In this document: positions 21,664 through 50,126 of the stretch, in pieces
How positions within the stretch are numbered: the first letter of the stretch is position 1
Layout of the letters: each line of letters starts with the position of its first letter
Source of the DNA: Escherichia phage ev017
Length of the DNA: 50,126 nt
Sequence record: NC_049948.1
Direction: 5' to 3' (one strand)
Position numbers and translations under genes: made by a program
Notes under the pieces: generated by a model
The model's input: only the letters and a program-made list of their open reading frames with translations
Databases searched by the model: none
Told to the model about the DNA's origin: nothing

Positions 21664-21957
21664 ATGGATATAAGCCCCTTACTTCATGCGCTTTGTGCTG
21701 TGGCTGCGCAGATACTGGTTGGTCTTTTTACCGGAAACTGGGCTTACGGAGCGATAGCCGGTTGTACGTTCTTCATTGCGCGTGAACATACCCAGGCAGA
21801 ATATCGCTGGATTGAAATGTTCGGGCATGGCAAGCGAATGAATATGCCGTGGTGGGGCGGTTTTGATCCGCGAGCTTGGGATGTGGCAAGCCTGATGGAT
21901 TTTGCTGTGCCGGTGGTGGCGTGTCTGCTGGTCTGGCTGTTGGTTAATCGTGGGTGA
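21664..21957 (+). CDS. Hypothetical membrane protein
   Basis: 97-aa ORF with RBS-like GGAGG upstream and two hydrophobic segments. Confidence 0.45.
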   Translation: MDISPLLHALCAVAAQILVGLFTGNWAYGAIAGCTFFIAREHTQAEYRWIEMFGHGKRMNMPWWGGFDPRAWDVASLMDFAVPVVACLLVWLLVNRG

Positions 21958-22048
21958 AAAAAGGTGAGCTGTATATGCAACGGAGGAAGAACCCCCGTTG
22001 CTGGAAGCCAGGAAAAAGTATCGGGTGTTGCTGTCCTCGGATGTTGTG

Positions 22049-22906
22049 CTAATTGGGTGATAACAGATCCTGTGTATGGGAGTTTCCCTTTTTGCGTGCG
22101 TTGATGCTGGTAACGGCAAACGTCATGATGAACAAAACCGCGAATAAGACGACAATCGTCGGAGCTGGTGCGCTGTCGATAAAAAAGGACAACCAGACAC
22201 CAGTCATTGACACTATTACCGATATGCCAGTCGCCAGTAGGAGCGCAATATGAAAGCGTTGTGTCAGGAGTACCGCAATGGCGCCAGGCGCAATGAGCAG
22301 AGAAATGGAGAGAATGATACCTACCGCTTTCAGCGTCGCCACAATGGTCAGAGAGACCATGCACAGCAGCCCATAATGCAGCCATCTCGTATGCAAACCG
22401 CTTACCTGCGCCTGTTGATAATCAAAGCTGAACAGCAAAAAATCCCGCCATTTTACGCTAATAACAAGTGTAACCAGCCCGGCAATAATCATCGTCTGGA
22501 TTATATCGCCGATGGTTATCCCGAGCATGTCGCCGAAAAGAATATGGTCAAGATGTACGTCTGGTTTGACTGCAATATACAAGATCAGACCTGCGGCAAA
22601 CATGCCAGAAAAAACAATCCCCATCACTGTATCTTGCTTGATTCGGCTGTTGTCTTTCAGGTATCCCGTCGCCACCGCGCAGAATACTCCGGCGACGAAT
22701 GCCCCTGTAGCCAAAGGTAACCCCAGAATCCAGGCAAGCACGATTCCAGGAAAAACCGCATGACTCATCGCGTCACCCATCAGTGCCCAACCTTTCAGGA
22801 CCAGAAAGACCGACAGCAGCGCACAGGGTATGGAAACTACCAGTGAAATCAGCAGTGCGTGACTCATAAAGGTGAACTGCAGTGGCTCCAGTAATAATGC
22901 CATCAT
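22049..22906 (-). CDS. sitD: Iron/manganese ABC transporter permease SitD
   Basis: 285-aa polytopic membrane protein typical of the ABC-3 permease family; last gene of a 4-gene operon. Confidence 0.88.
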   Translation of the reverse strand: MMALLLEPLQFTFMSHALLISLVVSIPCALLSVFLVLKGWALMGDAMSHAVFPGIVLAWILGLPLATGAFVAGVFCAVATGYLKDNSRIKQDTVMGIVFSGMFAAGLILYIAVKPDVHLDHILFGDMLGITIGDIIQTMIIAGLVTLVISVKWRDFLLFSFDYQQAQVSGLHTRWLHYGLLCMVSLTIVATLKAVGIILSISLLIAPGAIAVLLTQRFHIALLLATGISVIVSMTGVWLSFFIDSAPAPTIVVLFAVLFIMTFAVTSINARKKGNSHTQDLLSPN

Positions 22907-23760
22907 GAGCGATCCTCCAGCGCCTTATGCGCACGCCGACGATTTGCCAAAAGCCCATGGGTGGGCGCAAAGACAAATGCTAAAAGAAACAGCAGTGTCT
23001 GCGCCACCACGATGATTCCACCTGTCGCGCCGTCCAGAAAGTAACTGACCCACGCGCCGAGGAAACTAGTTACACTGCCAATAGTTACAGCAATCATGAG
23101 CAGGCGGGGAAAACGATCGGTTAACAACCATGCTGTTGCACCGGGAGTCACCACCAGACAGATCACCAGAAAGGCACCAACCGTTTGCAGCGCCGCAACG
23201 GTCGAAACCGACAGCAGGGTGAAGAAGATGAGTTTTAATCTGCCCGGATGCAATCCAATAGCACGGGCGTGATTCTCGTCGAAAAAGGTCACCATAAGAT
23301 CTTTCCATTTGAAAAAAAGCACGATGATCGAGAGAATGCCAATGATAGTGAGTTGCAGGATATCCGCCGGATCGATTGCCAGAATATTGCCCAGGACGAT
23401 GGTCTGAATGTTCACAGATGTCGGGTTCAATGACACCATAAACAGCCCCAGGCCAAAAAAGGACGAGAAGATCAGACCGATGATGGCATCTTCTTTTAAG
23501 CGGGTGCGTTGGTTAAGAAACAGCATGCTGCCCGCAGCCAGTCCGCCGGAAAAGAAGGCTCCCAGAGAAAACGGAAGCCCCAGCATATATGCCCCCGCAA
23601 CACCCGGGACAATAGAGTGCGACAACGCATCGCCAATCAGCGACCAGCCTTTTAGCATCAGATAGCATGACAGGAAAGCGCAGAGACCGCCGACCATCGC
23701 CGAGACCCACATCGCATTGAGCATATATTCATAGCTGAAGGGTTCCAGTAGCACGTTCAT
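22903..23760 (-). CDS. sitC: Iron/manganese ABC transporter permease SitC
   Basis: 285-aa ABC-3 family permease, translationally coupled to sitB and sitD. Confidence 0.88.
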
Positions 23761-24584
23761 CTTTCTTCCCTCTGCACCGCTGACGGTCGATGAGCCACAA
23801 AAGGGCGTTCATCGTCAGTAATAATGCTTTCTTCCGAGCCGTTAAGTGTGACATGGCGCAGTACGCCGCTAAAAGCCAGCTCTAGGTTCTCGGCTGTAAA
23901 AGTGGTGTCTGTCGGCCCGCTTGCCAGGACGGTGCCTTTGACCATGACCGTATAATCGCAAAATGTCGTGACGGATCCGAGATTGTGTGTTGAGACAAGC
24001 ATCGTTTTGCCTTCCGCGCGTAACTCCCTCAACAGGCTGATGATTTTGGCTTCGGTTTTCACATCAACGCCAGTAAAAGGTTCATCCAGCAGGATCACAT
24101 CACCCTGCTGTGCAATCGCTCTCGCCAGAAAGACGCGTTTCTTTTGTCCACCGGAAAGCTCGCCGATTTGTCGATGGCGAAAATTCACCATATCGACACG
24201 TTCCAGCGCATCGGTGACAATTTGACGATCCCTCTTTTTGGCGATACGCAACATACCCATATGCCCATAGCGGCCCATCATCACCACATCTTCCACCAGT
24301 ACAGGAAATGACCAGTCAACATCTTCTGACTGAGGGACGTAGGCAACCAGGTTTTTCTGTAACGCCTGTCGCGTGGGAATACCCAGAACAGATATCTTTC
24401 CGCTGGTCAGACGCACAAATCCCATAATCGCTTTAAACAACGTCGATTTTCCGGAACCGTTTACCCCAACCAGAGCGGCAATAGATCCACTTGGTACTGT
24501 GAAGGATGCATCGCGCAGTGCTGTGTGCCCGTTACGCCAGGTGACAGTAACATCATTAACGACAATGCCTGCAGATTGCATCAT
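23757..24584 (-). CDS. sitB: Iron/manganese ABC transporter ATP-binding protein SitB
   Basis: Walker [13 protein letters not shown] signature LSGGQKKR, Walker B ILLDEP. Confidence 0.92.
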
Positions 24585-25498
24585 TATTTCTCCCTTTTCC
24601 CAGCTTTAATTCCCTGTACCAGCGTACTGGTAGTAACCTTAAGAAGGTCGATATACGTCGGTACCGGGCCGTTTTCTGTGCTCAGGGAATCGACATAGAG
24701 CACACCGCCGTAGTGTGCGCCGGTTTCACGCGCAACCTGACGCGCTGGTTTATCGGAAATCGTACTCTCGCTAAAGACTGCCGGGATATGATTTTTCTTA
24801 ACTATATCAACAACCTTACGTACCTGCTGCGGTGTTCCTTGTTGATCGGCATTAATCGGCCACAGATAAAGCTCTTTTAGCCCCAAATCGCGTGCGAGAT
24901 AAGAAAAAGCCCCTTCACTGGTGACCATCCATCGCTGATTCTCAGGGAGTTCCGTAATCTGCTTACGCAGGGGGGCAAGGGTTTGGGTAATCTTGGCTTT
25001 ATAAGTATCGGCATTGCGTTGGTAGGTTTGTGCATTTGCCGGATCGTATTTTATCAACGCATCACGAATATTATCGACGTAAATCAGAGCATTATCTGGC
25101 GACATCCATGCATGGGGGTTAGGTTTGCCCTCATAGGGTCCTTCGGTGATCCCTACAGGCGTCACACCCGAAGAGACAATTACTTCTGGAACCCCATTGA
25201 GATGCTGGTAAAAGCGTTGGAACCACAATTCCAGATTCATACCATTGGCGAGAATCAGTTGTGCCCCCTGCGCACGTTTAATATCGCCAGGGGTAGGCTG
25301 ATACTCATGAATTTCTGCACCAGGCTTGGTTATGGATGAGACTTCTGCAGCATCTCCCGCCACGTTTTTGGCCATATCCGCGATGATGGTAAATGTTGTA
25401 ATGACCTTGAATTTTTCAGTTGCACTTGCCTGAAATGCGATCGAGCAGGTGAGTGCGAGGCCCCCCAAGAGCATGGTTACTTTTTTTATCGAGTGCAT
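24584..25498 (-). CDS. sitA: Periplasmic metal-binding protein SitA
   Basis: 304 aa with N-terminal signal peptide; cluster-9 metal-binding lipoprotein-like; first gene of operon. Confidence 0.88.
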
Positions 25499-26184: not shown

Positions 26185-26955
26185 GTGATTGATACAATGA
26201 AAACCTTAAGTGGGAAAGAGTTTAGGAAATTATTTAATCGTTATGAGACAGGATTCTATCTAAGTGAGTTTGAATACTTAAAGGACTTTGATCCTTTGTT
26301 TCCTGAATGCGTAGGGAAAGAATTAAAGTTGGGTTATAAACGAAAAGTTGATGTATGGTGCGAAGAGGATGCTGCGCTATATGCAGAATTTATAGCTACA
26401 AAAGAAAGGCTGAAAAGAGGCCGGTTAATCCTAAAAATAAACCAAGTGTGGTCGCGTGTATATCCTGCTTATATTTATGCAATTGAAGAAAGAATAAATG
26501 TCAGGGCAAAGGGGAGAGAGTCATTTAAGTATGAAACTGTGCAAGAAAAACAATGTAAACTTTCCATAATGTTAGATGGTCTGAAAGACCTTGAATGTGA
26601 AATAGCTATGATTTCAAGTGAGTTTGAAATTGAAAAACACTCTATGCACTATTTTTATATGATTTTTGATATTGAACGCTATATAAATGACTGCAGTTAC
26701 TTTGTTTTTTCTGCTGCTAAAGTTGTTAAAGGCGTGATTCAATGCATTGGTTACATTGACAAAAATAACAAAGCAAGTTGCGATGAATTTTATTCAGGCA
26801 GCTATGAATGCTTGGATGATGATCAGGAAACACTGAACTATTTAAATGAATCATGCGCAGAGGGTATAGACGCTGATAAAGATCTCATCAGGAAGAATGA
26901 GTTATTAGCCTTATCCCTGAAGGAATTGTATCAACTTCTCGTTTCAAAAAAATAA
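26185..26955 (+). CDS. Hypothetical protein (AT-rich orphan cargo gene)
   Basis: 256-aa ORF, markedly AT-rich relative to its flanks, own upstream AT-rich region; no recognised motif. Confidence 0.6.
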   Translation: MIDTMKTLSGKEFRKLFNRYETGFYLSEFEYLKDFDPLFPECVGKELKLGYKRKVDVWCEEDAALYAEFIATKERLKRGRLILKINQVWSRVYPAYIYAIEERINVRAKGRESFKYETVQEKQCKLSIMLDGLKDLECEIAMISSEFEIEKHSMHYFYMIFDIERYINDCSYFVFSAAKVVKGVIQCIGYIDKNNKASCDEFYSGSYECLDDDQETLNYLNESCAEGIDADKDLIRKNELLALSLKELYQLLVSKK

Positions 26956-27414
26956 CAAGTAATACGGCGAGCGATATGACGTGCCATGGGATATCCGCAC
27001 CCAGCAGCATGTTGTCTCCACGATGTCCGCAGTTCGCTCATAATAGACATTCACTACAGTTATAGTAGAAGGTATGCATGCTGCTGAGTGGGGAAAGTGT
27101 GAAAGAAAAGAAGACAGCTGCTTTGTTTGTCGTCACGTTTATCTTCATTGGCTATGCAAGTCGTAATACAAGGCGGGACAAAACTGAGACACATAAGGCC
27201 TCGCAATGGCTTGCAAGGCCACACATGTATTGAGATGTTAATAAAATGTAGACTTGTAATTTTGATATAAATGGTAGAGAAAATCTTTCCCCAAAATAAA
27301 AACGAACGTCAATGAAATCAAACGGTTGAATAAAGTTGATTTTGGCTAATACAAAGACAAGAAAATAATATTTATGATTAAATATCAGCGAGTTGAATAC
27401 ATAATTTTTATATA

Positions 27415-27579
27415 CTGCTGCGCCATATGGGCTGGACTGAAGCCGCAGACCTGATTGTTAAAGGTATGGAAGGCGCAATCAATGCGAAGACCGTAACCTA
27501 TGACTTCGAACGTCTGATGGAAGGCGCTAAGCTGCTGAAATGTTCAGAGTTTGGTGATGCGATCATCAAGAATATGTAA
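27415..27579 (+). other. icd': Phage-borne 3' fragment of icd (isocitrate dehydrogenase) within the attP region
   Basis: Encodes ...[52 protein letters not shown]-stop, matching the C-terminus of E. coli Icd with substitutions; no upstream icd body. Confidence 0.8.
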
Positions 27580-27602
27580 TCACTACATGTGTTAAATATT
27601 GT

Positions 27603-27630
27603 AACGGGCGTATAACACGCCCGTTGTTTT
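27603..27630 (+). terminator. Rho-independent terminator-like hairpin after the icd fragment
   Basis: AACGGGCG-TATAACA-CGCCCGTT stem-loop followed by GTTTT. Confidence 0.6.
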
Positions 27631-27644
27631 ATGATGATGTAAAA

Positions 27645-27685
27645 TCTTCCCCAAAACTTTCCCCAAAACCCTTCCCCAAAACTGG
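27645..27685. repeat. Three tandem (C/T)TTCCCCAAAAC repeats; candidate integrase arm-type binding sites (a further copy at about 27284-27297)
   Basis: Direct repeats read in the sequence, immediately adjacent to the int stop. Confidence 0.55.
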
Positions 27686-27692
27686 CTATTTT

Positions 27693-28835
27693 CTATGCTG
27701 TTTTGATATCTACGATAATCCAGTCTTTACCACGATCATCATTGTATCGGTCGGTCATTTTTCTGGATTTATGACCTAACAACTTTTGCGTATCCAGACC
27801 CTGTTCCCGATATAACCGTTCTGACAGAGATCGCTGCTCATGAAATGTGGGCGCAGTTCCTGGCTCCCATTTTATGCCACATTTTTCCCTGGCCTTTTTA
27901 AAAGCCGTTGTAAGAGTATTTGCAGACACCTGGTCTCCTCTGTTTGCTTGAGAGGTAGTGTGACGGTAATGGACCAGATATTTACTAACAACAGCATCCC
28001 TGCACTGAGATATAACTTCACGAAGGGTAATATTCAGAGCATCGCATTTCAGGTTAAGCGGAATAGCAAGTTTTGAACCGGTTTTTTCCTGAGTAATGTG
28101 CAACATGTCGTCCCAGATATCAGAGAATTTCAAATTGCAGATATCGCCTAAACGTTGTCCAGTGACAAGAGCAAGTAGCATCCCGCATTTTAAATAGGGC
28201 TGCCGTCTGCTTACGCTGTCAAATATTGCCTGCCATTCGGGCAGTGATAATCTTTGGCGGTTTACTCGATTTCGCGGTTGTTTTGTTGCCTGCGCTGGGT
28301 TAAATCCTGGCGGAACATGTCCTGCGTGTTGTGCTTCTTTGAAGACGTCGATCAACACCATTCTCACGACTTGCGCCATCCTGTTATGACCTTCAGCCTT
28401 TACAGCATCAATTATTTCGGCAATATCAAGTGCGGTAATATCCTTGAGGTGTTGCATTCCACAATGCTCACGGAAAAGACGAATGGGTTTGCCTTTTTGC
28501 CGATAGGAGTTGGGTCTTAGTTCATTATGTTGCAGCCTGTCCTCCTGGATAGAAATATATTTATCAAGCCATTCTGTCACCGTAATGTCTGAGCGCCTGC
28601 CTTTCATTCTTTCTAGACGCTCATTGACGCTTAATATTTGTCGGGTACGTTGTTCAGCAATAATGGTATTTGCTTCAGTAGCAACTTGTTTTGCTTCATT
28701 CTCATCAGTTCCTAAGCTATGAAAACGACCGGATAGTGGATGTTTGTATTGCCAATATACCTTTCCGGTTCGCTTATCTAATTTGCAATATAAATTGGGT
28801 ATAGAGATTTTGTGAGATCGGGGTCTAGCAGCCAT
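27693..28835 (-). CDS. int: Tyrosine integrase (icd-targeting, phage 21/e14-like)
   Basis: 380-aa ORF; catalytic-domain R...HxxR...Y pattern (LGHKSRKMTDRY); adjacent to icd fragment and xis. Confidence 0.9.
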   Translation of the reverse strand: MAARPRSHKISIPNLYCKLDKRTGKVYWQYKHPLSGRFHSLGTDENEAKQVATEANTIIAEQRTRQILSVNERLERMKGRRSDITVTEWLDKYISIQEDRLQHNELRPNSYRQKGKPIRLFREHCGMQHLKDITALDIAEIIDAVKAEGHNRMAQVVRMVLIDVFKEAQHAGHVPPGFNPAQATKQPRNRVNRQRLSLPEWQAIFDSVSRRQPYLKCGMLLALVTGQRLGDICNLKFSDIWDDMLHITQEKTGSKLAIPLNLKCDALNITLREVISQCRDAVVSKYLVHYRHTTSQANRGDQVSANTLTTAFKKAREKCGIKWEPGTAPTFHEQRSLSERLYREQGLDTQKLLGHKSRKMTDRYNDDRGKDWIIVDIKTA

Positions 28836-29061
28836 CAGCGATTATCCGTTGGAGTTTTGGGTTTGCGTTTATTGGGAGTTGCGGTTCTGCAAGCGTTCCT
28901 ACAAAACGGGAATTTCGGTCAATCATCCAGTAGCGACCAACTTTTATAGCGGGTGGGGCCATCATTTTCCCTTGCGCGTATTTTTTCAGAACTCGCTCAC
29001 TTGGTGCTAAGTCCCCAAATTCTTCTTTAGCCCAGTCCTGTAAAGTGATTAGTCGAGACAT
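28825..29061 (-). CDS. xis: Excisionase
   Basis: 78-aa ORF overlapping the int start; LITLQDWA...winged-helix-like N-terminus. Confidence 0.7.
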   Translation of the reverse strand: MSRLITLQDWAKEEFGDLAPSERVLKKYAQGKMMAPPAIKVGRYWMIDRNSRFVGTLAEPQLPINANPKLQRIIADGC

Positions 29062-50019: not shown

Positions 50020-50126
50020 TGTCTCTTATACACATCTGACGCTGCCGACGAATAGAGAGGTGTAGATCTTCGTGGTACCCGTCTCGTTAAAAAAAAAAAC
50101 TAAGACGTGGTACCATATTAGAGTTA
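50020..50126. other. Non-biological Illumina Nextera adapter (mosaic end TGTCTCTTATACACATCTGACGCTGCCGACGA, index ATAGAGAG, degenerate P5, poly-A)
   Basis: Adapter strings read directly; preceded by ...GATCCAACAGGTTACGGG resembling the lambda right end. Confidence 0.92.

Follow-up and report, generated by a model that had tools for sequence, protein, structure and literature searches.

A phage 21-type attachment site carrying the 3' end of host icd in the genome of Escherichia phage ev017

The window analysed here is the whole 50,126-nucleotide stretch of Escherichia phage ev017 DNA deposited as NC_049948.1. According to its ORF map, the sitABCD genes, an iron/manganese transporter moron on the minus strand (21744-25498), adjoin an attachment (att) site that is followed by int and xis. 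A 256-aa ORF on the plus strand (26185-26955) lies between sitA and the att site; it is annotated as 'hypothetical protein' in phage 21, in Perceval and in the prophage of E. coli ATCC 25922, and a Pfam search with its sequence returned no match. On the opposite side, int (27693-28835, minus strand) encodes a lambda-type tyrosine integrase with an N-terminal arm-DNA-binding domain: residues 1-71 of the protein matched PF09003 (Arm-DNA-bind_1, E = 1.8e-28), residues 200-367 matched PF00589 (Phage_integrase, E = 7.8e-24) and 376 of its 380 residues (99%, full length) are identical to those of phage 21 Int. The start of int is overlapped by xis (28825-29061, minus strand; PF07825, E = 6.7e-6), which is annotated as an excisionase gene in phage 21, Perceval and lysogens. 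The int gene together with the adjacent P' arm was found in about 30% of the complete E. coli genomes searched (1,616/5,426). At Rfam gathering thresholds no RNA family was detected near the att site, the only match in the window being Lambda_thermo, the cIII thermoregulator (RF01804, 35285-35343, minus strand, 88.5 bits). The prophage sRNA svsR of the icd-integrated phage NC-SV was also considered for this location and rejected, since its paper places svsR at the 3' end of cI.

Between the 256-aa ORF and int, the plus strand carries the last 54 codons of icd (27415-27576) and its stop codon (27577-27579), a fragment hereafter called icd'. Its translation aligned significantly and over its whole length with E. 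coli isocitrate dehydrogenase residues 363-416 as found in PDB entries (E = 9.6e-30), with three differences from the K-12-type protein (M363L, D398E and E414K), and it matched the last 48 positions of the Pfam Iso_dh profile (301-348 of 348). The rest of the gene is absent: full-length Icd searched by tblastn against the window matched through residues 362-416 only, and the gene searched by blastn matched only at 27416-27715. In the free phage icd' is thus a pseudogene without a gene body, and it is annotated as a pseudogene in phage 21. Homology to the 3' end of host icd, as delimited by blastn and by the icd 3' end of a lysogen, covers both the coding part and the terminator (27416-27632, plus strand); it begins at 27416 and continues through the terminator to about 27630-27632. 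This block is 94.1% identical to K-12 icdC, 85.3% identical to the e14-derived icd end of the same strain and 100% identical to the attL of ATCC 25922. Downstream of the stop codon, an intrinsic terminator (27601-27627, plus strand) folds into an 11-pair stem followed by TTTTAT, with a folding energy of -16.7 kcal/mol (z = -3.3), and it corresponds to an annotated terminator in phage 21. An earlier note on this DNA had described an icd 3' end of about 54 residues at about 27415-27579, lacking the upstream body of the gene and followed by a terminator hairpin. The identity of the fragment, the missing body and the terminator are all borne out, with one adjustment, namely that homology to the host starts at 27416.

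The icd' block is flanked by repeats of the motif TTCCCCAAAA. An exact motif search located three tandem copies of the 11-bp sequence TTCCCCAAAAC at 27647-27657, 27659-27669 and 27672-27682, and a fourth copy, TTCCCCAAAAT, at 27287-27297, in agreement with the earlier reading of three repeats abutting the int stop codon and another at about 27285. In the form annotated in phage 21, they are plus-strand dodecamers of consensus YYTTCCCCAAAA; the P arm has a single copy and the P' arm a tandem of three. The P-arm copy, CTTTCCCCAAAA (27285-27296), lies some 130 bp upstream of the crossover region described below and is identical in phage 21; the P'-arm copies, TCTTCCCCAAAA, CTTTCCCCAAAA and CCTTCCCCAAAA (27645-27681), which are annotated as attP subsites in phage 21, lie at +231 to +265 from the core, and the last of them ends about 10-11 bp before the int stop codon (27693-27695). 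An exact YTTCCCCAAAA is present at four places in the whole window of 50,126 bases, all of them within this 400-bp stretch. When up to two mismatches were allowed, the sole extra match was an inverted TTAGCCAAAA at 27340-27349, which corresponds to the background frequency. An inverted partial match at 27089-27098 was rejected, as its AAAA half is missing and its position is outside the site. A weak, putative match to the IHF consensus WATCAANNNNTTR is present between the P-arm site and the core (AATCAAACGGTTG, 27316-27328, plus strand); since three such matches were found in the window and 2.1 were expected, it is suggestive by its position only.

The repeats are situated between two convergent genes, and they might instead be a signal of another kind, such as binding sites for Xis or a host factor, or a regulator of the convergent int and icd transcripts. 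We regard this as very unlikely. The integrase possesses a lambda-type arm-binding domain, which requires arm sites, and the phage 21 record marks the repeats as attP subsites. The layout of one P and three P' copies in direct orientation moreover parallels that of e14, in which the motif is a different one; this joint change of motif and integrase argues that the repeats are arm-type recognition sites and places the window with phage 21.

The junctions of an integrated relative were examined in E. coli ATCC 25922 (NZ_CP009072), a lysogen in which RefSeq annotates a complete 1,251-bp icd followed directly by int and xis. At its attL, the body of icd is joined to the window sequence from 27416 onward with 100% identity, so that the last 164 bases of the gene and the terminator are those of the window. 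The attR is located about 52 kb away, beyond a lambdoid prophage carrying sit, and comprises, in this order, the phage P arm, the core, the host allele of icd' and then ymgL/ycgX, with bluR nearby. Over 27200-27630, phage P arm included, attR is 96.8% identical to the window: it coincides with it throughout 27200-27425 and carries the host base from 27426, the host allele displaying 14 differences in 27426-27602, the first at 27426, before homology ends at about 27630. Identity of attL from 27416 and of attR up to 27425 restricts strand exchange in this strain to 27416-27425, the sequence TGCTGCGCCA at the 5' edge of host icd homology (plus strand). The limits of the core were set by this junction comparison alone because a by-eye search for core-type inverted repeats around the overlap gave no convincing pair. 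In K-12, homology of both the e14-derived and the original (icdC) icd 3' ends starts at the same TGCTGCGCCA.

We then derived a predicted empty site, attB, by fusing the host halves of the attL and attR of ATCC 25922. This sequence was found in one piece, all 899 bases being identical (100.0%), in another ATCC 25922 assembly (NZ_CP037449), whose chromosome is about 50 kb shorter, and at a coverage of at least 80% in 2,906 of the 5,426 complete E. coli genomes. Both attL and attR thus lie in icd; integration into icd was the only one seen in the lysogens inspected, and int was directly downstream of icd in every lysogen row inspected. The proposals that integration replaces the host icd 3' end with the phage copy, and that the gene is left functional in its reading frame yet altered, agree with these junctions: the lysogen icd remains a full-length ORF, and its comparison with the displaced allele shows 14 base differences and a single changed residue, number 370, which is T in the phage copy and V in the host allele. 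Past attR, directly after the displaced icd terminator, the host flank of ATCC 25922 contains CCGTTATAAAATAACGTATCAAAAG (L006, positions ~800-930). This sequence looks like a degenerate form of the e14-type arm repeats (TTATCAAAA), perhaps the scar left by an older e14-like element.

The window itself has the properties of a virion genome. Its ORFs follow the vegetative order of lambda, with the terminase genes at 270-2718, head and tail genes up to 21376, and then sitABCD, the att site, int, xis and the early and lysis genes. Remnants of sequencing adapters are present at both ends, namely a poly-T (1-24) and a Nextera P7/i7 adapter (25-90) on the left, and the reverse complement of the Nextera mosaic end, the i5 adapter and junk on the right (~50020-50126). 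Genuine phage sequence therefore extends from about 91 to about 50019 and is bounded by cos ends. It begins at 91 with CCTCGCGGTTTTTCACTATTTATGAAAATTT, which corresponds to position 10 of the phage 21 record and resembles the left cohesive end of lambda; the right cos end reads ...CAGGTTACGGG. Being a linear virion genome with a cos end on either side, this sequence has P arm, core and P' arm in one uninterrupted stretch, and the site is accordingly a true attP.

A hybrid of attR and attL at the junction between tandem elements inserted in a chromosomal icd would resemble attP. Such junctions can occur, or at least be assembled, as illustrated by the chromosomes of FXCREC028 (NZ_CM135822) and FXCREC048 (NZ_CM135821), in which sitABCD, the 256-aa ORF, icd' and int are contiguous; this intact attP arrangement could reflect either a tandem prophage junction or an assembly artefact. 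For the window, an origin of this kind is still less probable than a non-arm role of the repeats: the sequence spans a lambda-like left cos end to a right cos end, Nextera adapters are fused to both of its ends, its genes are in vegetative order (terminase to tail, sit, att, int, early, lysis) and it is devoid of host DNA. Even more remote is the idea that icd' is a passive remnant of aberrant excision with no role, the integrase targeting another sequence, for although the fragment is a pseudogene with no start context in the free phage, the crossover maps to its first 10 bp, the only complete icd in lysogens owes its 3' end and its terminator to the fragment, the arrangement is kept in e14 despite identities of only 85% for icd' and 60% for Int, and int with the P' arm occurs in 1,616 complete genomes and lies directly downstream of icd in all lysogens inspected.

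We conclude, with a probability of about 0.96, that the att region of the window is the attP of a lambdoid phage of the phage 21 type, which targets the 3' end of host icd; nothing was found that contradicts this explanation. The analysis establishes how closely the sequence matches phage 21, which domains Int contains, what the junctions at attL, attR and attB are, and where the crossover lies. The icd fragment, terminator and repeats on which the earlier note had built its attP are all located where it had read them, and in the phage 21 record these elements carry the annotation of an attP. The note's description of the integration as being of phage 21/e14 style is supported, with the refinement that the system belongs specifically to the phage 21 type and not to the e14 type, the integrase being only 60% identical to IntE and the arm motif being different. 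The feature is the phage 21 attachment site rediscovered: it is already annotated in GenBank, and both the site and its reading are already known, the layout being a long-known and very common one.

By analogy with lambda Int, the N-terminal domain of the integrase would bind the single YYTTCCCCAAAA dodecamer of the P arm and the three of the P' arm, while its C-terminal domains would bind the core at 27416-27425. Strands would then be exchanged with the identical TGCTGCGCCA of host icd, around codons 363-366. Because the phage holds the whole part of icd that lies beyond the crossover (54 codons, stop codon and terminator), attL rebuilds a complete and terminated icd of 416 codons, and integration leaves the gene intact. 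In the lysogen, codons 363-416, the stop codon and the terminator are supplied by the phage copy, and the full-length reading frame is retained. The terminator at 27601-27627 serves icd after integration. The 3' end that the host gene loses is found at attR, cut off from the rest of icd, and becomes a promoterless pseudogene. Icd activity is presumably kept in the lysogen, and IHF and Xis may have a role at the att site.

The site is a textbook case of how a temperate phage uses a position inside a gene of an essential pathway without inactivating it, by carrying the replacement. For annotation, the short 'isocitrate dehydrogenase' ORF of such phages should be viewed as an att-site component and not as a metabolic gene. 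The site also marks the chromosomal entry point of the widespread 'PAI-icd' prophages carrying Sit and Iss in ExPEC and AIEC. Current understanding is unchanged by these results.

Two further observations were made around the site. About 200 bp past the core, on the side away from int, the minus strand can form a strong hairpin with an extended stem at 27189-27228 (GGCCTTGCAAGCCATTGCGAGGCC; -23.7 kcal/mol, z = -4.6). Part of the hairpin lies within a 51-aa ORF that the phage 21 record lists as 'putative membrane protein'. The position of the hairpin relative to the site is that of lambda sib/tI, so that it could be a retroregulator of int, one that destabilises the int mRNA solely while attP is intact. 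The second observation concerns sequence variation: the 12 positions at which the att region departs from phage 21 are all within the icd' and terminator block, the arms being invariant, which suggests that phage and host continue to exchange icd 3' alleles by way of about 215 bp of homology. That the hairpin is a sib-like retroregulator of int and that the phage serves as a carrier of icd alleles through such exchange is a tentative proposal, and on balance we doubt it; if true, both would be small extensions of known biology. A record of another sort, ON470584 (vB_EcoM-689R6, H27), is a prophage prediction labelled 'partial genome' that contains a full-length host icd, followed by two ORFs, one of them with a DUF262 domain, and by a different integrase about 2 kb away. 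It probably represents a third kind of icd-associated element whose record includes host flank.

The closest known system is phage 21 (M61865; OL657228, ~27200-28980), which has the same order of att, int and xis and whose DNA is 98.6% identical over the 1.9 kb of window 27000-28900. At the homologous positions its record annotates an 'ICDH-like protein' pseudogene, a terminator, the integrase and the excisionase, together with 'attP ... 3 subsites P1P2P3; consensus YYTTCCCCAAAA'. The reading frame of icd' and its 54 encoded residues, the terminator and the four dodecamers are the same in the two phages. Across 27200-27719 the 12 nucleotide differences are confined to 27483-27601 and leave the peptide unchanged, and the arms (27200-27415 and 27602-27719) display none. 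In phage 21, attP has reportedly been delimited to 366-418 bp, bounded by the outermost dodecamers, its size is said to have been explained in the same way as proposed below, by the icd segment, and the arm consensus is reported to be required for integration. Elsewhere in the genome, window 91-25000 is 99.6% identical to phage 21 (99.9% to PhiR57_1) and corresponds to positions 10-24918 of its record, which include sitD, sitC, sitB and about half of sitA; classical phage 21 thus appears to carry sit. The early regions of the two phages differ, and the phage 21 genome measures 42.9 kb compared to 50.1 kb here.

Perceval (OV696612), the AIEC LF82 prophage also designated 'PAI-LF82-icd', is 99.2% identical to the window over att and int, with minor sequence differences, but its record leaves the icd' fragment and the att site unannotated. 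Like the 'PAI-icd' islands of ExPEC, Perceval is integrated in icd and has its sitABCD moron adjoining the att site, as in the window. The presence of sitABCD in this LF82 prophage has been described (PMC9928086), and 'PAI-icd' islands with Sit and Iss have been reviewed in many ExPEC and AIEC strains including LF82 (PMC7545054).

The cryptic prophage e14 of E. coli K-12 (icd/icdC, intE) shares its attB in icd with the ev017 phage and likewise carries a replacement icd 3' end and terminator. Its layout is alike, a single P-arm repeat preceding the core by about 128 bp and a tandem of three P' repeats following closely on the terminator, but the arm motif is TTATCAAAA where the window has TTCCCCAAAA at equivalent positions. 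Its IntE and icd' are 60% and 85.3% identical to their counterparts in the window, and ymfD, ymfE and lit separate its int from the att site by 3.3 kb, whereas int adjoins the site in the window.

The integrase of lambda is likewise a heterobivalent tyrosine recombinase that has an arm-binding domain. In lambda, too, three P' arm sites stand in tandem by the end of int, xis overlaps int, and the att site maps between the b-region morons and int in the vegetative order. Lambda, however, integrates between gal and bio, not inside a gene, and carries no host gene fragment. Its attP spans about 240 bp, and all its P' sites are less than about 90 bp away from the core. In the window the P' sites lie 231-265 bp from the core, unlike those of lambda, because the icd' block intervenes, and it is this block of about 215 bp between core and P' sites that brings attP to about 400 bp (27285-27681).
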